Shown here: positions 444 through 12,528 of the stretch, piece by piece
Layout: the number at the start of each line of letters is the position of its first letter
Position numbering within the stretch: the first letter of the stretch is position 1
From: Leptospiraceae bacterium
Lineage (GTDB): Bacteria > Spirochaetota > Leptospiria > Leptospirales > Leptonemataceae
Assembly: GCA_040217195.1 (NCBI GenBank)
Contig: JAVJNR010000002.1
Coordinates: forward strand, 288,001-352,000
DNA: 64,000 nucleotides
Direction: 5' to 3'
The notes under the pieces: model-generated
Databases searched by the model: none
The model's input: only the letters and a program-made list of their open reading frames with translations
What the model was told of the DNA's origin: nothing
Program-made: the position numbers and the translations under genes

Positions 444-1925
444 ATGAGCAACTCCAGCCCTGAAATATTACCAATTCGAACCCGTATGGGTTACGGAGCC
501 GCAGAAATGGGCATTTTTGCGGTGGAGATGATGGTGCGTCTGCATCTGATGAAGTTCTACACCGATGTGGCCGGCTTAAGCGCTGGATTGGCCGGGATGG
601 CCATTGCGGTCGCTATGTTCTGGGATGCCTTTACCGATCCTGTGATGGGAATTCTATCCGACCGAACCACTATGAGAATGGGTAAGAGGAGACCGTACCT
701 ATTGCTGGGGAGTTTTGTCATGGCCCTGGCTTTTCTGGCCACTTTTAGACCTCCCATGCTGGATACAGAATCCGGTCGTTTCATTTTTCTTCTCATAAGC
801 TATATAATTCTGAATACGGCCATGACCGTGTTGGCCGTCCCTCATTCGGCCCTGGGCGGAGAGCTTTCTTTTGATTCAAACGTCAGAACCTCAGTTTTCG
901 CCTTCCGGCTGTTCTTTGGTAATATGGGCTTACTGGCTGGTACGATTCTACCCATTGTATTTTTGGATACCATCGCGCCTGCAATGGGAACCGGAGATAC
1001 TCCCGGTGTAAGAGATCCGGAGGCAGCCACCCAGGCCTATTTCTATGGAGCGGCCGTAATCGCCGGGCTAATTCTGCTGACTGGCTGGGTCAGTTACATG
1101 GCAACCGCGGGTAGAGACCGACCGGCCGAAAAGAGGCCTCCGTTGCGCGGAAAGGCCATTCTGAATGAAATCGGCCGGCTATTCCAGGTTCTGCGAAACC
1201 CTATCTTTGTCGTTCTTCTGGGTGCGTACTTCATCGCCTATGTTGGTGTTTCCATCAATTCTACTCTGGCTCTCTATTACTATGAATACAGGCTCAGACT
1301 GGATAGCGGCTCGGTGGGCATCATTCTGGTAGTTTTTATCATTGTATGGTCTGCATCGCTGGTATTCTGGACCTGGCTTTCACGAAAGGCTGGCAAGAAG
1401 TATCCAGGATTTGCCGGAGTATTCCTTCTCGGACTTGCAACCTGCATTACGTATCCATTCTTTCCTCCTGGCGAAATCCTGTATCCGCTAATCATGTCTG
1501 TGCTCGGAGGTTTCCTCGTAGGGGCCATTGTACTTCTGGATAGTCTGGTAGCTGACATTGTAGATTACGATGAGCTGAAGACAGGTGAACACCGGGAAGG
1601 ACTGTATTTTGGATTCTGGAAAATGGCTATCAAGGCATCCCGGGGAGTGTCCATGGCATTTACCGGAACTCTCCTGGCTGCCATAGGATTCCAGGCAAAT
1701 CAGATTCAGACCGAAGAAGTGAGCAATCGTATTGCAGTACTCTTTGGCCCGGGCGTTGGCGCATTCTTTCTACTGGGAGCCATTATCTTTCTATTTCTTC
1801 CCTACAGCCGGGCCATCCACCACAGGGTTCAGAATCTTCTGGTGCGAAAGAGAGAGCTTCGAAACCGCTTGCGTTCTGGTTCAGCCCACTTCCAATCCTC
1901 TGTGCAAACAGGAGGAACGGTATGA
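444..1925 (+). CDS. MFS transporter, GPH/MelB (glycoside-pentoside-hexuronide) family
   Basis: About 12 hydrophobic segments; motifs WDAFTDPVMG-x-SDRT, GKRRPY, ADIVDYDE-x-TGEHREG. Confidence 0.9.
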   Translation: MSNSSPEILPIRTRMGYGAAEMGIFAVEMMVRLHLMKFYTDVAGLSAGLAGMAIAVAMFWDAFTDPVMGILSDRTTMRMGKRRPYLLLGSFVMALAFLATFRPPMLDTESGRFIFLLISYIILNTAMTVLAVPHSALGGELSFDSNVRTSVFAFRLFFGNMGLLAGTILPIVFLDTIAPAMGTGDTPGVRDPEAATQAYFYGAAVIAGLILLTGWVSYMATAGRDRPAEKRPPLRGKAILNEIGRLFQVLRNPIFVVLLGAYFIAYVGVSINSTLALYYYEYRLRLDSGSVGIILVVFIIVWSASLVFWTWLSRKAGKKYPGFAGVFLLGLATCITYPFFPPGEILYPLIMSVLGGFLVGAIVLLDSLVADIVDYDELKTGEHREGLYFGFWKMAIKASRGVSMAFTGTLLAAIGFQANQIQTEEVSNRIAVLFGPGVGAFFLLGAIIFLFLPYSRAIHHRVQNLLVRKRELRNRLRSGSAHFQSSVQTGGTV

Positions 1926-3775
1926 ACTTGAATGATTTTTTGCAACGTTATCCCTGGTCCAGATGGAACGTGGATCCAGAAAAAGAAAGAATCGTGGAAA
2001 ATCTCTGGATTTTCCCACTGGAAGTTAGTCGAGAAGATTTCTGGCCCTACATAGCAGATACATCCAGAACCAATAGCTTGCTGGGACTTCCAGAAATGAT
2101 TTTCGAAGAGAAGAATGGAAAGCTTTTCGGAAAGACCCGGTATGCAGGCATTCAGCATGAATGGGAAGAGGTGCCCTGGCAATGGCGTCGACCGGAAGAG
2201 CTGATTTCCGTGCGTCTGTACTCAAAGGGATTGGGCAGCATGGTTCGCGGAATTTTCTATCTGGAAGAATCCGGTGAAAACCGGACAAATGTACATATCT
2301 ATTTTGGATGGGTTGCCAGTGGTCTATTTGGCGCTCTATTTCTGAAAATCGGAACCGGAAGAATTAAATCCGGATTCGCAAACGTACTCAAGCAATACGA
2401 AAAAGAAATCCAGAGTTCAAAGACTAAAAAGCCGGCTGCGTTGACAACAATTGAGAAGCCAGTGATTGACCTGGAAGATAAGGCCAGAGCCATCGTGGAT
2501 CAGACGCGAAAGACCTGGGATAAGCAGGCAATTCCAGCGGAAGTGTCCGAGGCCCTGGTTCGAATTGTTACTCGATGGGACGATGTAGACCTGTATCGAA
2601 TTCGTCCATTGTCTCTGGCCGATCAGCTAGGTCTGGACAGCAGGGAGGTGATTCGAGCCTTCCTTTACGGGTGTCAGACAGGGCTATTTAATCTTACCTG
2701 GGACGTTATCTGTCCTCATTGTCGCGGAGTTAGAGAGGAAAAGGGCAGCCTGATGAAATTGGACGCCAGAGGCAGCTGCGACGTATGCGATATAGATTTC
2801 GATGCAACCGGCGAAGACAGTCTGGAAATTACCTTTCATGTCAGCCCATCGGTTCGGGACGTTAAGAAACAGTTCTTCTGTAGTGCAGAACCGGCTCGAA
2901 AGCCGCACATCATTCTGCAAGACCACCTACTTTCTGGAGAAGAGCGGAACGTAAACCTGCAACTGGATTCTGGCAGATACAGAGCAAGGCTCCAGGGAAG
3001 TCAGTCATTTTTCTGGCTCCAGTCCGATGACCTGAGCGGAATTCAAAGATATCGGTGGGAGGCAGGTGCAACGTCGACCGGAGAACCGGTAAGTGTTATC
3101 ACAAGGCCGGTCCTGGAATTAAAGAACTCGGATTCTAAAGCATTAACCTTCGTTGTCGATCGCAGCGATGCAGACAATGAAGTCCTGCGACCGGGGGATT
3201 TGTTTGCTCTGCCAGACTATCGATTACTGTATCCGGATGAAAGGCTCCCGGGAGATCTGAAAATAGACATCGGTGTACAGACCATCCTGTTCACTGATAT
3301 TGTCGGCTCTTCAAAAATGTATAATGAGCTGGGAGATACCGGGGCCTTTAAACGAGTAAGGGACCATTTTGCCTCCATCGGTGAAGTCATAGAATCTGGC
3401 AAGGGAGCGATAATAAAAACAGTAGGCGATGCTGTCTTTGCTGTCTTTGGAAACCAGGTCGATGCGTATCGCGCAGCTCTGGAATTGCGAAAGAGATTCG
3501 CAAGCACCGATGCCGCAGTTCAGATTCGCATATCATTGCATACAGGCCCCTGTCTGGCTGTGAACCTGGATACAGGCATCGATTACTTTGGAAACACTGT
3601 GAACCTGAGTGCCAAGCTTCAGGCATTTGCAGGCGCCGGGCAAATCGCATTCACCGGATCTGCTCTGGAAAGTTCCCTTGTAAGGGAGGAGCTTCGCAGG
3701 GAGGGATTGAGACCACAGGAGGTGGATTTGCCGGAGTCCATGAGCTGGATTCCGGACAAGGTGTACCGGGTATGA
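1922..3775 (+). CDS. Class III adenylate/guanylate cyclase with N-terminal SRPBCC-like region and DUF5939-like Cys4 domain
   Basis: C-terminal LFTDIVGSS, IKTVGDAVFA, ISLHTGP, DYFGNTVN motifs; CPHC...CDVC in the middle; ATGA overlap with the MFS gene. Confidence 0.85.
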   Translation: MNLNDFLQRYPWSRWNVDPEKERIVENLWIFPLEVSREDFWPYIADTSRTNSLLGLPEMIFEEKNGKLFGKTRYAGIQHEWEEVPWQWRRPEELISVRLYSKGLGSMVRGIFYLEESGENRTNVHIYFGWVASGLFGALFLKIGTGRIKSGFANVLKQYEKEIQSSKTKKPAALTTIEKPVIDLEDKARAIVDQTRKTWDKQAIPAEVSEALVRIVTRWDDVDLYRIRPLSLADQLGLDSREVIRAFLYGCQTGLFNLTWDVICPHCRGVREEKGSLMKLDARGSCDVCDIDFDATGEDSLEITFHVSPSVRDVKKQFFCSAEPARKPHIILQDHLLSGEERNVNLQLDSGRYRARLQGSQSFFWLQSDDLSGIQRYRWEAGATSTGEPVSVITRPVLELKNSDSKALTFVVDRSDADNEVLRPGDLFALPDYRLLYPDERLPGDLKIDIGVQTILFTDIVGSSKMYNELGDTGAFKRVRDHFASIGEVIESGKGAIIKTVGDAVFAVFGNQVDAYRAALELRKRFASTDAAVQIRISLHTGPCLAVNLDTGIDYFGNTVNLSAKLQAFAGAGQIAFTGSALESSLVREELRREGLRPQEVDLPESMSWIPDKVYRV

Positions 3776-3783
3776 GGTAGAAT

Positions 3784-4680
3784 ATGAAGTATCTGATTAA
3801 GGATCTCAGTAAATTAACAGGCTTTGACGGTGCCAGGATTCGAAAATGGCAGGAAAGGTATGGCATTCTGCGTCCAGAACGAGGGGCTAATGGCTATTGG
3901 TACTACGGAAATGAAGATTACATAGTGTTGCAGAATATGAAGCGGCTTCTGCAGAAGGGCGAAAAGCTGCAATCTGTGATTTCACTGGGTCGTGATCATC
4001 TGATTGGTATGATGGGTGCGGATGATTTCTCCGAGCATGAAATGTCACTCATTCAAAGAATCTCCTCCAATGAATTCTCCAGTATCGAAGAGGACTTTAA
4101 TGAACTCTATTCGCAGATGCCTTTTGGTCAGTTTGTTCGTGGTCCTATCCGGGACGCTGCAGTACTAACGGGGAGTGCCTGGGAAGCGGGCCTATTGTCC
4201 GTAGCCGAAGAGCATTCATTCTCTCGCTGGCTATTTACTTACATCTATGGAAAGACAGGTGCACTGGGCATTCCATCTGATCCTGTATGGCTGGTTTGTG
4301 TCTTTCCTGGAGATCCCCATGAACTGGGTGCGTTGATGCATTATGCGCTTCTGGTTTCGAAAAGGGTTCCGGCGAAGTACGCAGGGACTCTGTCCATAGA
4401 TCATATTATCGATGAAATTAAGAGGAACGGATACAGAAATCTAAGTCTGTCGATGATCATGCCTCAATCACCAGAAAAGATAGAAAGCATTCGCAGTCGC
4501 ATAAAGGAAAGGACCGGACTGCGAAAGGTTCTGATTGGAGGAAGAGGCTACAGGTCATCTTATTCGTCTGGAGAGGACGGTGATGGTCTTCAGTACTGTG
4601 AGCCGCCAGTGATTAATAAGCGCCGGAAAATCCTCCTGGAAAACATAAATAGATCAATAGAGAGCTCGAAGCAGGACTAG
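3784..4680 (+). CDS. MerR-family regulator with cobalamin-binding domains (CarH/LitR-like)
   Basis: N-terminal MerR HTH (IRKWQERYG-x-LRP-x-R); W133-x9-E143-H144; D177-x-H179-x2-G182; C-terminal LIGGRG. Confidence 0.85.
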   Translation: MKYLIKDLSKLTGFDGARIRKWQERYGILRPERGANGYWYYGNEDYIVLQNMKRLLQKGEKLQSVISLGRDHLIGMMGADDFSEHEMSLIQRISSNEFSSIEEDFNELYSQMPFGQFVRGPIRDAAVLTGSAWEAGLLSVAEEHSFSRWLFTYIYGKTGALGIPSDPVWLVCVFPGDPHELGALMHYALLVSKRVPAKYAGTLSIDHIIDEIKRNGYRNLSLSMIMPQSPEKIESIRSRIKERTGLRKVLIGGRGYRSSYSSGEDGDGLQYCEPPVINKRRKILLENINRSIESSKQD

Positions 4681-4726: not shown

Positions 4727-6007
4727 ATGAGGGTAGGAATTGTTGGAAGCGGTATCTCCGGTCTCGGGGCCGCGTATCATTTAAAGACAAGATACGGTCA
4801 TGACGTTGAAATCTTTGAAAAGAACAGTTATGCAGGCGGCCATACCAATACCATACCACTGGAAGAGGATGGTCATCCGGTGGCAGTGGATACAGGTTTC
4901 ATAGTCTTTAATGAACGGACCTATCCAGAACTGATCAAACTATTCGCAGAATTGGATGTGGAGTCCCAGCCAGGGGATATGTCCTTTAGCGTCTGGAATT
5001 TGCGGAATAATCTGCAATGGAGTGGAAACGGTTTCTCAGGTCTCTTTGCTCAGAAGCGAAATCTAATGAATCCCCATTATCTGCGAATGCTTTCATCCGC
5101 GAAGCGCTTTTTTAGTGAAGGTGCGGAAGATACAAACCTGGACCCTGATCTGTCGATTGGGCAGTATCTCGGGGACAGAGGGTATTCTAAATATTTCTGC
5201 GATAATTTTGTAATCCCCATGGCCTCCGCCGTTTGGTCCACTCCTATGAAAGAGATGCTGGGTTTTCCCGCCGGATCTTTGCTGCGCTTCTTCAAGAATC
5301 ATGGAATGCTAGATATTGAGAAGACTGTGATCTGGCGAACGCTTTTGGGCGGTTCCTGGACCTACGTTAAAGCGATTCAGCAAAGAGCGGATCTGAAAAT
5401 TCATCTGAATCAGCCCACCCGAGAAGTGAGAAAAAACGAGGGTGGGGCGATGATTGTTACTGATTCCGGAGAACACCAGTTCGACGCAGTGCTCATGGCC
5501 TGCCATTCGAATCAGGCAATCGGCCTGTTTCCGGGTATGCCGGAAGAGCATCGAAACATTCTGAAGCATTTCAAGTACCAGAAAAACCAGGCCATTTTGC
5601 ATAGCGACGAGCGTGCGATGCCACCAAGAAAGAAGGCCTGGGCTGCCTGGAACTTCAAAGTCACTGAAGATGAGCGGACTTGCACAGTTTACTGGATGAA
5701 TAAGTTGCAGAATCTGCACAAGCAGGGGGCGCAAAGAGAATACTTCGTATCCATCAATGAATTCCAGAACATCGACGAATCCAAAATCCATCGGGTTATC
5801 AACTATGAGCATCCACTGTTTGATGTTCAGGCAGTGAAAAACCAGAAAGAACTTCTTCGAATCAATCAGGAAGGACCGGTCCATTACTGCGGTGCCTATT
5901 TTCGATACGGCTTTCATAAAGATGGACTGTGGTCCGGGCTCCAGGCGGCCAGATCTCTGAATGAGCGGTTGGTAGGTTCGGAGGCTCTTGCAGGACGCGG
6001 AAAGTAG
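4727..6007 (+). CDS. FAD-dependent oxidoreductase, COG2907 / UfaD-like fatty acyl desaturase
   Basis: GSGISGL dinucleotide-binding motif, GGHTNT, VDTGFIVFN-x-RTYP, WAAWN, Y-x-HP, GAYF-x-YGFH-x-DG. Confidence 0.85.
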   Translation: MRVGIVGSGISGLGAAYHLKTRYGHDVEIFEKNSYAGGHTNTIPLEEDGHPVAVDTGFIVFNERTYPELIKLFAELDVESQPGDMSFSVWNLRNNLQWSGNGFSGLFAQKRNLMNPHYLRMLSSAKRFFSEGAEDTNLDPDLSIGQYLGDRGYSKYFCDNFVIPMASAVWSTPMKEMLGFPAGSLLRFFKNHGMLDIEKTVIWRTLLGGSWTYVKAIQQRADLKIHLNQPTREVRKNEGGAMIVTDSGEHQFDAVLMACHSNQAIGLFPGMPEEHRNILKHFKYQKNQAILHSDERAMPPRKKAWAAWNFKVTEDERTCTVYWMNKLQNLHKQGAQREYFVSINEFQNIDESKIHRVINYEHPLFDVQAVKNQKELLRINQEGPVHYCGAYFRYGFHKDGLWSGLQAARSLNERLVGSEALAGRGK

Positions 6008-6027
6008 TCCCGAGTCGAGTATTGTCA

Positions 6028-6966
6028 ATGCAGGATCAGATTCTAAACAGCGTAATGTACAATGCCACTGTGTATCACAGAAGAATGCAGGTGGCCATAC
6101 ATGAGTTTCGCACCAGTATGTATACCTGGTATCTGGATCTGGATGAGCTCGATTCATTGAGCGAGAAGCATCCAATTCTTATTGGAGTGAATCGTTCGGG
6201 AATTTACTCTTACAGGGATTCGGATCACTTCCGATTCTGGAACGCAGAAAGAAAGGAAAATGCGAGCATCAATCCTGCAATTCCGGGAAAGATGCGAAGG
6301 AAGGAAAACTCAAACGCGAATTCAAAGAAGTCGGGAATTTCTGCTGCAGCTACTGGCGCCAGTCAGGTGCGCTCCTGGGTGAATCAGTATTTCCGCGAAA
6401 AGGACCAGCCAGAGCCCCATCGTGTTTTGTTGCTTACGAATCTGAGATATCTAGGTTATGGTTTCAATCCGGTGAGCTTCTATTTTGCTCTGGATCGGAA
6501 AGACCGACTCTATGCAATTCTAGCGGAAGTAAACAACACATTTGGAGAACAGAAGCCGTACTTGATACTGCTGGATAAGCCGGTGGAGGATTCTGAAGAT
6601 AAGCGAATCCATGCCCGGGCCTGGAAGAATTTCTATGTTTCTCCCTTCATCGACCGGGACCGAGAATTCGTTTTTCGCATGAAGAGACCAGGAGAGAAGC
6701 TCAGTCTCGGAATAGATACATACGAATCGGAGCAGCCAGTCTTGAGAGCGGCTTACTCCGGGCGACGAATGGCCATTACCCGAACAAGTATGCTTATGAA
6801 TATGCTTCGCTTTCCGTTTGTAACGATCAAGGTAATAGCACTGATTCACTGGCATGCTTTACGTTTATATCTGAAGAAAGTTCCATTTTTTAGCAAGGAA
6901 TCAACGGACAAACTAATCAGGAAAGATGAAAACAAAAGAAATGAGGTTACCCATGCTGCGGTCTAA
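6028..6966 (+). CDS. DUF1365 family protein (UfaO-like)
   Basis: H-x-R, LDLDEL, GY-x-FNPVSFY, AEVNNTFGE, K-x-FYVSPF, IHWHAL-x-L-x2-KKVPF motifs. Confidence 0.88.
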   Translation: MQDQILNSVMYNATVYHRRMQVAIHEFRTSMYTWYLDLDELDSLSEKHPILIGVNRSGIYSYRDSDHFRFWNAERKENASINPAIPGKMRRKENSNANSKKSGISAAATGASQVRSWVNQYFREKDQPEPHRVLLLTNLRYLGYGFNPVSFYFALDRKDRLYAILAEVNNTFGEQKPYLILLDKPVEDSEDKRIHARAWKNFYVSPFIDRDREFVFRMKRPGEKLSLGIDTYESEQPVLRAAYSGRRMAITRTSMLMNMLRFPFVTIKVIALIHWHALRLYLKKVPFFSKESTDKLIRKDENKRNEVTHAAV

Positions 6967-8245
6967 ACAAACTCCCCAACATTTCCTCAAAGGAAATCGA
7001 CTTCCCCAAAAAGAGATCCAGGATTATCCCCGAGGATTTTATCAATCAGTGTTCCACCGTGTCATGTCCCGGGCTACCAGCGGGCAACTGAATCTAGAAA
7101 TAGGAGATGGAACTCATATATATGGTGAATCCGGCTCAGCGGAGGCGGTAAGTCTACGAGTACTGGATGACAGATTTTTCAAGCACGCCGTGCTGCACGG
7201 AGATATTGGATTCGGTGAAGGTTTTGTAGAAGGTCTATGGGACACAGATGATCTTCATGGAGTGCTGAGCTGGTTTCTGCAGAACGGAGATTCCAATCCT
7301 ACTTTCGCTCAGGGGGCAGCCAAAAGCCTGGTCGTGGGCGGGCTGAATTTTCTGGACAAAGTCGGTCATGCCTTTCGTCGGAATACCCGGCAAGGCAGTC
7401 TTAGAAATATTAGCTATCACTATGATATCTCCAACGATCTGTACAGGCTGATGCTGGATCCAACAATGGCCTATTCTTCTGGCAAATACTCCGAAGGAGT
7501 CAATGATCTGCAGAAGGCTCAGGAAAAGAAATACGAGACTATCTGTCGTAAGCTTGCCCTGAAACCGGATCTGGAGCTGCTTGAAGTGGGCTCCGGCTGG
7601 GGCGGCTTTGCCATATATGCAGCAAAGCACTATGGATGCAAAGTTACTACTGTTACAATTTCGCAGCAGCAGTTTGACTATACCCGGGAATTGATAGAGA
7701 GTGAGGGTATGGAGGATCGTGTTAAGGTTTTGCTTCAGGATTACAGGGATATTGAAGGAACCTATGACCGAATCGTTAGTATTGAAATGGTGGAAGCTCT
7801 GGGTCTTGAATACCACGATACATTCTTCAAGAAAATGAATCAGCTACTTAAAACTCAGGGAATCATGCTAATACAGTGTATAACGTTCCCGGAGAGCTCT
7901 TATGATCGATACGTTCAAAGCATAGATTGGATTGCGAAACACATTTTTCCAGGTTCTCTGTTGCTTTCCCAGTTTGAAGTAATGAAGTCGCTTAAAAGAG
8001 TAACGGATCTCAACATCTATAGCATTGAAAGCCTGGGTCTGAGCTATGCCAGGACTCTGAATGCGTGGTATGAAAGATTCAATGCCAATTTGGAACGGGT
8101 CAGAGAACTGGGTTTTGATGATACGTTCATTCGACTCTGGAATTACTACCTGGCATACTGCGAAGTAGGTTTTGCCAGTCGATACATCAATGATGTTCAC
8201 ATAGTGTTTTCCAGGTCTCAGAATACAGAATTGCCAGACGGTTAA
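6953..8245 (+). CDS. Cyclopropane-fatty-acyl-phospholipid synthase family methyltransferase (UfaM/CfaS-like)
   Basis: HYDISND, MAYSS, LEVGSGWGG (SAM binding), SIEMVEA, HIFPG, WNYYLAYCE-x-GF; start placed after SD GAGGT (alternative 6926). Confidence 0.9.
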   Translation: MLRSKQTPQHFLKGNRLPQKEIQDYPRGFYQSVFHRVMSRATSGQLNLEIGDGTHIYGESGSAEAVSLRVLDDRFFKHAVLHGDIGFGEGFVEGLWDTDDLHGVLSWFLQNGDSNPTFAQGAAKSLVVGGLNFLDKVGHAFRRNTRQGSLRNISYHYDISNDLYRLMLDPTMAYSSGKYSEGVNDLQKAQEKKYETICRKLALKPDLELLEVGSGWGGFAIYAAKHYGCKVTTVTISQQQFDYTRELIESEGMEDRVKVLLQDYRDIEGTYDRIVSIEMVEALGLEYHDTFFKKMNQLLKTQGIMLIQCITFPESSYDRYVQSIDWIAKHIFPGSLLLSQFEVMKSLKRVTDLNIYSIESLGLSYARTLNAWYERFNANLERVRELGFDDTFIRLWNYYLAYCEVGFASRYINDVHIVFSRSQNTELPDG

Positions 8246-8271: not shown

Positions 8272-8520
8272 ATGTCGGAAGAAACAGAAGACATGCTTAT
8301 GAAGAGCATGGAATCCCAGCTGATCACTCTCTATGGAGAGCGGGAATTGCTGCTGGAGGAATTGGGTGTATGCAACGCTCAAGAATTGATCGCACTGATT
8401 AAGAGCATGGAAGCGCAACTGGCAGACCTCTACGCTGATAGGGAGAATGCCATTATAATAGATGGAAATCGGATAACGATTTCGGGCCCAAAGAAGATCT
8501 TTGTCCGAAAGAGTAAATAA
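8272..8520 (+). CDS. PYP-associated hypothetical protein with two KSME-x-QL-x2-LY repeats
   Basis: Strong SD GGAGGT; 82-aa ORF; internal repeat; fills the gap between cfa-like gene and pyp. Confidence 0.8.
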   Translation: MSEETEDMLMKSMESQLITLYGERELLLEELGVCNAQELIALIKSMEAQLADLYADRENAIIIDGNRITISGPKKIFVRKSK

Positions 8521-8546
8521 TTCCGCGAAAGGAAAAGGAGAATACA

Positions 8547-8972
8547 ATGAGTGAAGCAATAATGAAGAAAATCCAGGAGCAAGCCGCCTACTGGGCCCAG
8601 AGCAGTGCCAGGTTTGTGGAAGACACCGTAGTTGAGGAGATTGCTGGCTATGATCGTTCGAAAATCGATGAGCTGCCCCATGGAGTCATTAAGCTGGATG
8701 ATGAAGGGAAGGTCCTATTGTTCAGCCGATATGAATCCCAGAAGTCCGGTGTCCCCGTTGCAGAAGCGGAAGGTAAGCTGTTTTTCAGCCAGGTGGCTCC
8801 CTGCACAAACAATGCAATCTTTCTGGGAGCATTCCAAAAGGGTGTGTCGGAAGGGCATATGGATTTGATTTTTCCTTACACATTTACCTATAAGATGAAA
8901 CCCGCTCCGGTAAAGGTTCATCTGTATCGCAAGGAGGGAACCAGGGATAACTGGGTCTTCATCAAGTGGTAG
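8547..8972 (+). CDS. pyp: Photoactive yellow protein
   Basis: Ungapped match to the PYP core as I recall it: GVIKLD-x2-G, E63 (=E46), GK-x-FF-x2-VAPCT (C86 = chromophore Cys69), F-x-YTF-x-Y-x-M-x-P-x2-VKVH, WVF-x-K; SD AAGGAG. Confidence 0.93.
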   Translation: MSEAIMKKIQEQAAYWAQSSARFVEDTVVEEIAGYDRSKIDELPHGVIKLDDEGKVLLFSRYESQKSGVPVAEAEGKLFFSQVAPCTNNAIFLGAFQKGVSEGHMDLIFPYTFTYKMKPAPVKVHLYRKEGTRDNWVFIKW

Positions 8973-10471
8973 ATGTCTGGAAGAATCTACTTTACCGGCG
9001 GCTGAAAGGAAAGTCGGAGCCTTTATTTCTATTCCCGGAGCAAGCCGTGTCAGCTGCGGCTCTGTGGATGGGAGTAAGGCTCTGGTTGCAGCGCTGGCAA
9101 AGAGAAGATCCGGTTGTGTTTGCAGCCATCGGAGCAGGTCCCGAATACCTGGAGGTATTGGTGGCTACGCTGGTGCGAGGAGGTACTTTTGTTGCCGGTC
9201 ATCCGGAACAGGGATTCGAACATCTCAGGACTGAAATCCTGCAGTGGCAACCAGACTTTGTGGTTCTGGATAGGCATTCATCCTTTACAATTCCCGGATA
9301 TAGGATATGCGATGAAGTCAACGAACATCGTAATGCCTTACTGTTAGGCCGGATCCATGGTTACGAAGATTTGCAGGAAAAGCACCCTCTGCGGCAATTC
9401 CACTCATCTGAGCGAAGAATCATTCTTTCCACGTCTGGAACCACAGGTGGTCAGCGAAAATGGGCTATCCTTTCAGACTACAATCTATTTAGCGTATTGC
9501 GCACTCATCTACCCAGACTACAAATGAAAGGCGCTACGGTTCTGAGCGTACTTCCCTGGAATCATGCCTTTGGATTAATACTGGATCTAATTCCTGCACT
9601 CCTCCGGGCTCGCACTATTGTCAGAGACATTCCAGGGGACGCTTCCCGATTTCTCGCTGTTCAGAAACGATTTGGGATTGATTATGTAAGTGCAGTCCCC
9701 GCAGTATTCGATCGTTGGCTAAAGGATGACTCCGTTAAAGATGTAATCGGAAGCTTTACAGGTGGTCTGCTCGGAGGAGCTTCCGTAAATTCTCAACTGG
9801 CCAATGCACTTCGCGGTAGTAGCTTTCGAGTTGGATACGGGCAAACCGAGGCATCACCCGGAATCACTCTTGGAAATGCCGGAGATTTCAAACAGGGATT
9901 TATTGGCAACGTACTGGGATGTGAAGTAGATATCTCACAGGGAACATTGCATTATCGTGGTCCCAACGTTTGCACTGCCATGGTTAATTTCACCGAATCG
10001 CCAGGTATTCAATTCTCTGAATCGACCAGAGTAGCGCTAGAAGATGCAATGCATTCGTTAACTATAGGGATTCAAAAAAGAGATTCGGGTAACTGGCAGG
10101 ACACCGGCGATATAGTCCAGGAAGTGGAGGGCGGTTTCAGATATCTGGGCCGTGCCAATGATAATTTCAAACTCTCCAATGGACGTTTTCTGGATGCCAT
10201 TGCCTGGGAGAAAGCCCTGGAAGAATCCACCGGGTATCATTGCTATATCGTTTCATTTGATGGTGGTTTCAAAGTCTACTTCGCAGCCCCGGACCATGAA
10301 TCCGGTAAACAATCATTCCCTACGATAAAATTACAAGCCAGACAGTCTCTGGGAAAACTAGGCGAATACATTCGAGGGATGGAGTTCCTGCAGGCCCGGG
10401 ATATACCTCGCAGCTCCAAGGGCGATGTGAATCGGTCCGCACTATCCAATCCAAAGGCCGGAGGATCATAA
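8966..10471 (+). CDS. pcl: AMP-dependent ligase, probable p-coumaroyl-CoA ligase for PYP chromophore attachment
   Basis: STSGTTG P-loop, LPW-x-HAFG, GYGQTEAS, DTGD, GR-x2-D-x-FK; overlaps pyp stop. Confidence 0.8.
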   Translation: MVDVWKNLLYRRLKGKSEPLFLFPEQAVSAAALWMGVRLWLQRWQREDPVVFAAIGAGPEYLEVLVATLVRGGTFVAGHPEQGFEHLRTEILQWQPDFVVLDRHSSFTIPGYRICDEVNEHRNALLLGRIHGYEDLQEKHPLRQFHSSERRIILSTSGTTGGQRKWAILSDYNLFSVLRTHLPRLQMKGATVLSVLPWNHAFGLILDLIPALLRARTIVRDIPGDASRFLAVQKRFGIDYVSAVPAVFDRWLKDDSVKDVIGSFTGGLLGGASVNSQLANALRGSSFRVGYGQTEASPGITLGNAGDFKQGFIGNVLGCEVDISQGTLHYRGPNVCTAMVNFTESPGIQFSESTRVALEDAMHSLTIGIQKRDSGNWQDTGDIVQEVEGGFRYLGRANDNFKLSNGRFLDAIAWEKALEESTGYHCYIVSFDGGFKVYFAAPDHESGKQSFPTIKLQARQSLGKLGEYIRGMEFLQARDIPRSSKGDVNRSALSNPKAGGS

Positions 10472-10472
10472 T

Positions 10473-10994
10473 ATGACTAACAATTCAACGGAAATGGAAG
10501 GGCTAATTTCCAACAGTAAAGTAGAGCATCTTCTGGAATACTTACTCTCCGACGCTCCGCTTTCTGAGGAACAAAAGCAACACTTAACAGAAGAGGCGAA
10601 TACCTGGAAGCAGGACTTGCTAGATCAGTCTTCCATATTTGCGCAAACCAGGCAGCTGCAATCCTACATTGCCCTGCGCTTCACCGAACTGAAGGCTCGC
10701 TGGATTATCTTGAATGCTCGAATACAGGACTGCAACCGCCAGCTGGTTCAGCCAGATCCTGAATTACTCTACCAATCCTCCATTCTCAGTGGATTCCTGG
10801 GTATGCTGGAAGAAGGATTGGAGGCAGGTAGACTGCATCTAATCAATGATGCCCTGGCAAACCAGGCATCAAGTCTGGAAGGCGGGCCGTACGTGGTTAT
10901 CGAGGGAGATCAAGTGATTATTGAAGGAAAGCGAAAGGTGATGATCTATAGAAAGAGCAGTTTAGACGATGATTCTAACAAGCAGTCCTCCTGA
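10473..10994 (+). CDS. PYP-cluster hypothetical helical protein with C-terminal beta motif
   Basis: SD GGAGGA; 1 nt after pcl stop; overlaps tal start. Confidence 0.75.
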   Translation: MTNNSTEMEGLISNSKVEHLLEYLLSDAPLSEEQKQHLTEEANTWKQDLLDQSSIFAQTRQLQSYIALRFTELKARWIILNARIQDCNRQLVQPDPELLYQSSILSGFLGMLEEGLEAGRLHLINDALANQASSLEGGPYVVIEGDQVIIEGKRKVMIYRKSSLDDDSNKQSS

Positions 10995-12528
10995 ACCAGA
11001 GCAACTGGAGGCACTGACCGATTCTGTTCAGATCTCTACTGAAGTCCAGCAGGTCGCTATCGTCAGCAGGCAGCATTTTGACCGTGCCGTTGCGGCCGGA
11101 CAGTCTATATACGGAACGACCACCGGCTACGGTCCATTTGTAGGCTTTCAGGCCCGGGAAGATGGAGGAACTGATTTAATTGAGCATTTGCTTGTTGGAA
11201 GCGGCGAAGCATTGCCTCCAGATCTAATCTCCCCGGCCCTTTATTTGAGGGCCTGGACCATGGCCCAGGGAAGGTCTGGAGTGCGAATCCCGGTAATTCA
11301 GGCTTATCTGGATGCACTTGGTATTTGTCAGACAGGAATGTATCCGGAAATTCCATCCATCGGATCTCTGGGTGCCAGCGGTGATCTTATACCTCTGGCT
11401 CATCTATTGAATGCAATTCTTGGCAGGGGCTCATGGAAAGGGCACTCCGGTAAGACCAGAGTTGCAAATCTAGTAAAAGGTCATTCCATGGATAGACGCG
11501 AAGCCCTGGCCTGTATCAATGGAATCAGTTTTAGTAAGGCCGGCGCTTCTCTGACTTACTGCAAGCTGAATCGCCTACTTCGGATACATGAAATACTGAC
11601 AGCCATTCTATACTATCTTCTGGATGCCAACCCGGATCATCTCAGCCCTACTCTTTTTCAGTCTGCGAATCCTTCCAATACAGCCGGTCGAATGCTCAAT
11701 TATCTAAACTCAATAAATAAGCGAGCGAGCCAGGGAAACTCCGGTCATTCAGGCGCGAAAGATCTGCAACACAGCGCAGAAGGCGAAAGCCCGCGTCATG
11801 GCTACGCACTTCAGGCCCCTTACAGTCTTAGATGCGCTCCACAGACCATAAGTGCCTGCCTGGGGCTATTGAATTCTGCCAGAAGCTCTATTTTTCAGGA
11901 TCTTGAAACCATCGATGACAATCCATTGATCGATCCGGAAACAGGTTTTGTAGCTCATGGAGGAAATTTCTTTGGGCAGTCCACTGCATTCGGCAGCGAT
12001 GAGCTTACAATGGCCGCCTGTCAGTCTGGAGTGCTGGCCGAGCGCCAGCTGGCCTTGATTCTGGATCCAGACTTAAATGGCGAAGAGGCATTGATGCTGG
12101 CGAGAAAACCAGGCCATAGCAGCGGGCTTGCAGGACTGCAACTGACTACTACAGCTCTGGTGGCTGAAATGAGAAGTTTGAGCCAAATGCATAGCACCTA
12201 CAGTATTCCTACGAACGGCAAAAACCAGGATATTGTACCTATGGCCTTTCTGGCTTCCAGACGTGCCCACCAGGTTACGATTCATCTTTCGGCTGTTCTA
12301 GGAGCTCTTTTAATGGCTACCAGAAATCTCTGGCAAATGCGAAATGAAAATGAGGTAGTCTTTGATTATCCCTTCTGGCCGGAACATCGTCTTCGAATGC
12401 TCAGCGAAGCAATTGTCCTGGCTGGAGAAATGGAATACCCGGATGAGTCCCTGGGAAAAACCCTTCAATTTTATCAAAGAGCATTAATAAACCGGGAGAT
12501 CTTGAGCGATGAAAATCTATACCCTTGA
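10969..12528 (+). CDS. tal: Aromatic amino acid ammonia-lyase, tyrosine ammonia-lyase type
   Basis: YG-x-TTG-x-G, MIO-forming ASG in GSLGASGDL-x-PLAH, YSLRC-x-PQ, DNP, HGGNF, NQD; HL selectivity pair (IEHLL-x-G-x-G). Confidence 0.88.
   Translation: MILTSSPPEPEQLEALTDSVQISTEVQQVAIVSRQHFDRAVAAGQSIYGTTTGYGPFVGFQAREDGGTDLIEHLLVGSGEALPPDLISPALYLRAWTMAQGRSGVRIPVIQAYLDALGICQTGMYPEIPSIGSLGASGDLIPLAHLLNAILGRGSWKGHSGKTRVANLVKGHSMDRREALACINGISFSKAGASLTYCKLNRLLRIHEILTAILYYLLDANPDHLSPTLFQSANPSNTAGRMLNYLNSINKRASQGNSGHSGAKDLQHSAEGESPRHGYALQAPYSLRCAPQTISACLGLLNSARSSIFQDLETIDDNPLIDPETGFVAHGGNFFGQSTAFGSDELTMAACQSGVLAERQLALILDPDLNGEEALMLARKPGHSSGLAGLQLTTTALVAEMRSLSQMHSTYSIPTNGKNQDIVPMAFLASRRAHQVTIHLSAVLGALLMATRNLWQMRNENEVVFDYPFWPEHRLRMLSEAIVLAGEMEYPDESLGKTLQFYQRALINREILSDENLYP

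Follow-up and report, generated by a model that had tools for sequence, protein, structure and literature searches.

A Leptospiraceae photoactive yellow protein with phenylalanine and serine at the Tyr42 and Asn43 positions: a probable clade-B blue-light sensor

The pyp gene of the window (the whole stretch of 64,000 nucleotides analysed here) is, judging by its sequence, an intact and conserved member of the family of photoactive yellow protein (PYP), belonging to clade B and evolving under purifying selection. Its product carries phenylalanine and serine at the positions of Tyr42 and Asn43, and is probably a working p-coumarate blue-light sensor, in which Ser50 would replace the hydrogen bond of Tyr42 and Ser43 would keep the helix cap. 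We favour this explanation because of the gapless alignment, the retention of key residues, the fold, the recurrence of both residues, the pN/pS ratios and the syntenic operon, although caution is imposed by a family-wide compensation that is not significant, by the defect caused by an Asn-to-Ser exchange in BvgS and by the rare T103A change in the window genome. Residue names with numbers such as 42, 43, 46, 50, 52 and 69 follow Halorhodospira halophila PYP. The gene and the residues discussed are:

8547..8972, + strand: pyp, single-domain PYP of 141 aa (ORF list, phmmer, profile and model)
8679..8681, + strand: His45, at the Phe28 position; His in 11/247 listed domains, common to several Phe42/Ser50 congeners
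8721..8723, + strand: Phe59 (TTC), at the Tyr42 position
8724..8726, + strand: Ser60 (AGC), at the Asn43 position, directly before helix 61-67 (N-cap in the model)
8733..8735, + strand: Glu63 (GAA), equivalent to the proton donor Glu46, kept
8745..8747, + strand: Ser67 (TCC), at the Thr50 position, hydroxyl retained; proposed substitute hydrogen-bond donor to the phenolate
8751..8753, + strand: Val69 (GTC), at the Arg52 position, the commonest residue there among the matches listed (105/247)
8802..8804, + strand: Cys86 (TGC), equivalent to Cys69; site of the chromophore thioester, within a VAPCT motif
8904..8906, + strand: Ala120, at the Thr103 position; Ala in 4/247 listed domains, private to the window genome within its genus

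The earlier note had placed F59, S60, E63, S67, V69 and C86, with the equivalents of F96, Y98 and M100, at an offset of 17, and both the codons and the alignments bear this out. With phmmer, residues 25-140 align with residues 8-123 of wild-type H. halophila PYP (E 1.6e-22), the four printed alignments are gap-free, hence the offset of 17, and Phe113, Tyr115 and Met117, which correspond to Phe96, Tyr98 and Met100, are all kept. At ~36-38% identity, the window PYP differs from that of H. halophila in Ser43, Ser50, Val52, His28, Ala103 and an N-terminal extension, while sharing Glu46, Cys69, Phe96, Tyr98, Met100 and the fold (1NWZ, TM ~0.88). An AlphaFold2 model from a 66-row alignment (pLDDT 87.6) has the PYP fold and is matched by Foldseek to PYP structures at E 9e-14 and TM ~0.88; the top rank of the Y42F structure in that search was dropped as evidence, since the best matches differ trivially. 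The score against the TIGR02373 equivalog, 96.2 bits, does not reach the curated cut-off of 143, which does not exclude membership of the family, because the characterised Leptospira biflexa and Salinibacter ruber PYPs also fall below it. Published practice assigns to the family those sequences that are similar to PYP, conserve Cys69 and retain Tyr42 and/or Glu46 (Xing et al., 2022; PMC9664959), and in the window PYP Cys86 is present, Glu63 is kept and Tyr42 is replaced by Phe. In the pocket formed by I31, Y42, E46, F62, V66, A67, P68, C69 and F96, eight of nine residues are kept, the exception being this known variant, Tyr42 to Phe.

This is the sole pyp in its genome, which is 94% complete. 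The assignment to clade B comes from its grouping with Leptospirales and Bacteroidota PYPs by nearest loci and in our own tree. Among the best 80 of 568 loci, the nearest named ones lie in Leptospirales-type genomes at 50-89% identity: metagenome assemblies under the titles Leptonemataceae, Spirochaetaceae or Leptospiraceae stand at 76-89%, followed by Leptospira at 50-62%. The N-terminal extension of ~17-20 aa (8547-8610, + strand) is nearly invariant in the genus and common to a Leptospirales/Planctomycetota subgroup; a helix is predicted at residues 3-19 with low confidence (AlphaFold2, pLDDT ~58).

The earlier note had proposed a survey of positions 42 and 43 in relatives. Pooling 23 word-search matches with the top 150 of 1331 representatives, the top 80 of 568 genome loci and 20 family-search loci gave 286 domains with 271 distinct cores. 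Of these we kept the 247 that have Cys69 and letters at positions 42, 43, 46, 50 and 69, leaving out the remaining 24; the sample is skewed to relatives of the window PYP. Among these 247 listed domains, position 42 is Tyr in 199, Phe in 40 and another residue in 8; position 43 is Asn in 233 and Ser in 14, with no third residue; position 50 is Ala in 132, Ser in 60 and Thr in 30; and position 52 is Val in 105 and Arg in 44. Phe42 is combined with Ser43 in 4/247 and Tyr42 with Ser43 in 10/247. By these sequence counts Phe42 and Ser43 are the commonest natural substitutes at their positions among the matches listed. The implied rarity of Phe42, Ser50 and Val52 does not hold, all three being common or recurrent in the pooled sample; that of Ser43 stands in so far as few domains have it, yet it is the only natural substitute for Asn43 found there. 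Nor are Thr50 and Arg52, taken as reference residues in the note, the family consensus, which is Ala50 and Leu52, with Asn43 more than 70% conserved (PMC12826048). Phe42 is a known natural variant: Y42F is the commonest change at position 42, found in ~9% of PYP homologues in clades A and B (PMC9664959), and Phe42 occurs in 8.9% of 984 PYPs (PMC12826048). Ser43 is a recurrent variant and apparently an undescribed one, as the literature searched, with most subscription papers outside reach, holds no description of natural Ser43 (N43) variants.

In a 230-row tree built with the trait columns removed, Phe42 takes 19 changes and Ser43 ~11, and a single clade of the four Phe42/Ser43 rows is rejected (p-AU 2.6e-5). 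Within the genus, Phe42 is found in 6/7 genomes and Ser43 in 2/7, and among 38 distinct Leptospirales pyp genes, a listed subset of the matches in 65 positive genomes, Phe42 is found in 20/38 and Ser43 in 4/38. We read these distributions as showing that Phe42 is probably of long standing in the lineage, while Ser43 is an allele that recurs and is tolerated. We do not claim an independent origin of Ser43 within the genus: one clade is weakly rejected by the PYP tree (p-AU 0.040) and not rejected by the neighbour genes (p-AU 0.10), and the combined tree joins the window genome (G000) and G039 without support (42/29).

In the mechanism that we propose, the neighbouring lyase and ligase would make p-coumaroyl-CoA, as their homology and intact motifs suggest, and this would acylate Cys86. 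The chromophore phenolate would be held by Glu63 and by the Ser67 hydroxyl, as it is by Thr50 in the structure of the engineered H. halophila Y42F mutant (1F9I), which likewise combines Phe42, natural in the window PYP and engineered in the mutant, with a hydroxyl residue at position 50. Ser60, at its position in the model, would still cap the Glu63-bearing helix through a hydrogen bond. Blue light would then isomerise the chromophore, Glu63 would protonate it and the signalling state would form. The main band should stay blue (~430-460 nm); the pKa may be higher, recovery slower and a minor band present near 400 nm, all of which would lie inside the known family range. In engineered Y42F the hydrogen bond shifts to Thr50, with a red shift (PMC9664959) and a main band at 458 nm (PMC9062252), and two measured Ser50 PYPs absorb at 434 nm (PMC12826048). 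The characterised clade-B members are the PYPs of L. biflexa (457 nm, 0.35 s) and S. ruber (432 nm, 1 h), which resemble the window PYP in clade, by sequence and taxon, and in scoring under the TIGR02373 cut-off, but both have Tyr42 (Y/E/C; PMC9664959 supplement), and that of L. biflexa has Ala50 (PMC12826048). Tyr42 and Asn43 are among the residues with large mutational effects (PMC12826048). Serine occurs naturally at the Asn cap position of PAS domains; in BvgS, another PAS protein, an Asn-to-Ser change at the cap abolished activity and lowered the Tm by >10 C (PMC3726324).

In an 11-row genus clade, Ser50 accompanies Phe42 in 8/8 rows and Ala50 accompanies Tyr42 in 3/3, so that every row keeps one hydroxyl, at position 42 or at position 50, a pattern which fits the Y42F structure and may go back to a single event. 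Across the family, an association of Phe42 with Ser/Thr50 was significant in a raw Fisher test (26/39 vs 58/181, p 1e-4) but failed after kinship handling: grouped by kinship it is seen in 14/22 Phe42 groups (p 0.10), independent-pair tests are null, and Phe42 stands with Ala50 in 10/38 Leptospirales genes among the matches listed. A link of Ser43 with Ser/Thr50 is not claimed; it holds in 13/14 rows and 10/11 groups (p 0.004), but ranks fourth of 998 column tests and is null in independent-pair tests. There is no covariation between Phe42 and Ser43: among the matches listed, Tyr42 is found in 10 of 14 rows with Ser43, and here too the independent-pair test is null.

The surroundings of pyp comprise:

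1922-3775, + strand: DUF5939 and adenylate/guanylate cyclase gene, just upstream of the cluster
3784..4680, + strand: CarH-like MerR/B12-binding regulator, head of the cluster (CarH, E 5.6e-17)
4727..8245, + strand: flavin oxidoreductase, DUF1365 and cyclopropane-synthase-like (cfa-like) methyltransferase genes, upstream of pyp
8272..8520, + strand: orfA, 82 aa, without a known family, containing two repeats plus a hairpin at the C-terminus; candidate partner of PYP
8966..10471, + strand: AMP-binding acyl-CoA ligase with adenylation motifs, presumably a p-coumaroyl-CoA ligase
10473..10994, + strand: orfB, 173-aa protein of no known family, PYP-associated
10969..12528, + strand: aromatic amino acid ammonia-lyase with an intact Ala-Ser-Gly MIO motif, presumably a TAL

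The genes follow one another on the same strand (CarH-like, flavin oxidoreductase, DUF1365, cfa-like, orfA, pyp, ligase, orfB, ammonia-lyase and an SRPBCC protein), in an order which is the same in three long-contig congeners and in the available parts of the other three. Ligase and lyase are divergent and score under every curated NCBIfam cut-off; the lyase selectivity position is His-Leu, presumably the tyrosine-accepting type. The B12-binding residues of the CarH-like protein align with those of CarH, and two photoreceptor types, CarH-like B12 and PYP, are found in one cluster, the CarH-like gene heading the flavin oxidoreductase, DUF1365 and cfa-like genes that lie directly upstream of pyp. 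This arrangement is seen in the genus and in G027, yet in just 3-6 of the 80 listed loci, and our literature search returned no description of a CarH-headed cluster joined to pyp. It resembles photo-oxidative lipid-modification clusters. The PYP output may, on this gene order, be part of a light-stress cluster with the CarH-like regulator at its head, a setting that points to control of genes under light stress more than to a chemoreceptor link as in L. biflexa, whose pyp adjoins a chemoreceptor gene. The cyclase gene (1922-3775) is syntenic in three congeners and is a possible PYP output. Elsewhere in the window genome there is a BLUF domain (G000:C10:395833-396108, - strand, E 1.6e-25), and neither photolyase nor rhodopsin was matched in that 94% complete genome, the rhodopsin control query having matched nowhere either. 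A promoter and terminator scan was unusable (12 promoter-like sites vs 17.3 expected, 18 terminator-like vs 13.5 expected), and one RNA-run contig covers 8556-8708, too weak a trace to show expression.

Homologues of orfA lie within ~6 kb of pyp in 76/80 listed genome loci from many phyla, often with long repeat expansions, a count made with a once-iterated profile that may overcall coiled coils and with no control loci. The protein is strongly conserved in the genus (pN/pS 0.08-0.19), finds no Pfam match with E up to 1 and has Atlas matches of at most 0.81; this association makes it a candidate PYP partner, for which the natural dual-band Rhodobacter capsulatus PYP, with its small partner protein (PBP), is a precedent. 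The orfB profile scores in 65/80 listed pyp loci, an overcount in that it also picks up orfA through a shared C-terminal tail, and in L025 the homologues of orfA and orfB apparently lie in one open frame.

Among the closest published counterparts is the Leptospira stimsonii PYP, a natural Y42F variant of clade B that shares Phe42, Glu46 and Cys69 (F/E/C) and lies beside an acyl-CoA ligase and an aromatic amino acid lyase, as in the window (PMC9664959 supplementary file 4). The L. stimsonii protein P0009 is 62% identical to the window PYP but has Asn43 and Ala50 instead of Ser43 and Ser50, and at the head of the window cluster, unlike that of L. stimsonii, stand a CarH-like regulator and genes of lipid modification.

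The main alternative is that the lost Tyr42 bond and a weaker cap raise the pKa far enough to retune the sensor, giving a large 360-400 nm dark fraction or a far longer signalling state; we regard it as unlikely, yet worth keeping in view. Such a PYP, which we put forward tentatively, would respond in two bands, lean towards UV-A or integrate light, and would suit the switching of gene expression. Work by Kumauchi in 2010 on Asn43 capping is said to have found that N43S blue-shifts absorption, raises the pKa and slows recovery less than N43A does. Because both substitutions raise the pKa in engineered mutants, that of N43S reportedly so, a dual-band or long-lived form is conceivable. The background that the earlier note gave for Y42F was right, the engineered mutant being an equilibrium of species near 446 and 400 nm, and natural two-band PYPs are known (PMC12826048). 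Among them, Rc-PYP is a 375/438 nm UV sensor that signals from its UV form and lacks Met100, a loss offered as the cause of its long-lived state (bioRxiv 10.1101/2021.06.01.446672). The pair Phe42/Ser43 arose more than once, as the rejected single clade indicates, and the CarH-like neighbourhood, unlike the chemoreceptor context of L. biflexa, would also suit such a role. Against this, Asn43 is retained in the closest relatives, which are 84-89% identical and have the same operon, the two residues vary independently of each other, Ser50 can supply the lost hydrogen bond, and the Met100 replacement typical of the R. capsulatus UV-A/dual-band PYP, a clade-A protein with Met100 changed to Gly, is not seen here, Met117 being retained. 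It is plausible that the photocycle is altered or that there is a shoulder in the near-UV; a sensor dedicated to UV-A is less likely, and it is doubtful that Phe42/Ser43/Ser50 (with His28) forms a repeatedly evolved retuning towards a dual-band (~400/450 nm) or long-lived light-dose sensor in a CarH-headed stress operon.

Were that the case, the 77-89% identical orthologues with Tyr42/Asn43/Ala50 (G038), Phe42/Asn43/Ser50 (G036) and Phe42/Ser43/Ser50 would be a natural series in the compensation of the Y42F defect. Genus orthologues that differ at positions 42, 43 and 50 within the same operon offer a cheap test of how PYPs cope without the bond of Tyr42, and of a natural tuning of kinetics through position 43. 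No measured spectrum for the Phe42/Ser43 combination was found in the literature searched; natural Phe42 PYPs are catalogued, none being named as measured in the available portions of the PYP literature covered, and the accessions of a close Phe42/Ser43 relative are absent from supplementary file 3 of PMC12826048. The significance of the window PYP is modest: it is mostly ordinary, and the picture of the PYP family is unchanged.

A decaying gene, with both changes being drift in a dispensable sensor, is a very improbable reading. The earlier note raised relaxed selection on the grounds that TTC and AGC are each one base away from Tyr and Asn codons, and two of the five private changes, N43S and T103A, do strike well-conserved sites; the mean profile score, -1.11, lies close to the bottom of the genus range (-1.01 to -1.13). 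The dN/dS check that it suggested was run as pN/pS, the only ratio given because synonymous sites are saturated, and the ratio points to purifying selection. Compared with six congeners, pyp has pN 0.06-0.16 and pS 0.67-0.82 (saturated), hence pN/pS 0.08-0.20, with cfa alike (0.10-0.21) and the ligase (0.36-0.45) and lyase (0.34-0.42) above pyp. The branch is not accelerated, outgroup distances being 0.229/0.243 for the window PYP vs 0.214-0.221/0.221-0.243 for congeners, and its five private changes compare with 2-14 in eight relatives. Moreover, Phe42 is retained across the genus in two synonymous codons, this is the only pyp of the genome, and the ligase and lyase frames are open with intact motifs. 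Relaxed selection is therefore unsupported, although selection may have been relaxed very recently, on the terminal branch. Purifying selection and the syntenic operon with ligase and ammonia-lyase genes make both decay and sequencing error unlikely.

It is just as improbable that the pocket now takes a different cinnamate chromophore, such as cinnamic or caffeic acid, or a ligand that works independently of light: one phenolate-binding group is gone and the two biosynthetic enzymes are divergent, but Glu46 is retained, the His-Leu position is presumably of the tyrosine-accepting type, and Tyr42/Ala50 orthologues exist at 77-80% identity, one of them, in G038, in the same operon. A sequencing or assembly error at codons 59-60 can be practically dismissed: the genome is seemingly a metagenome assembly and the codons are covered in one of the four sequencing runs examined, but the contig of that run, X4, matches 8525-8735 with 0 differences (the two codons lying 9-14 letters from its end, under the 31-letter bridging rule) and comes from a different study than the best-matching runs, Phe42 is present in 6/7 congeneric genomes as TTC or TTT, Ser43 is AGC also in G039, and the Phe-Ser pair recurs in G039, P0006, P0174 and P0175. 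At least half of the sampled words were contained in 4 run rows, which come from 3 studies and are without exception marine metagenomes.

By their sequences, the Leptospira-type PYPs with Phe42 and Ala50, which have no hydroxyl at either site (L040, L042, L043, L045, L046, L115-L117, L120, L121 and L123-L127), are likelier than the window PYP to have a shifted spectrum; L042 and L043 each also encode a second PYP with Tyr42. Second-copy PYPs with Gln46 and Phe52 were observed in three genomes of the same family (L016, L018 and L019), and P0047 is an HTH/MerR-PYP fusion protein with Tyr42, Ser43 and Ser50.
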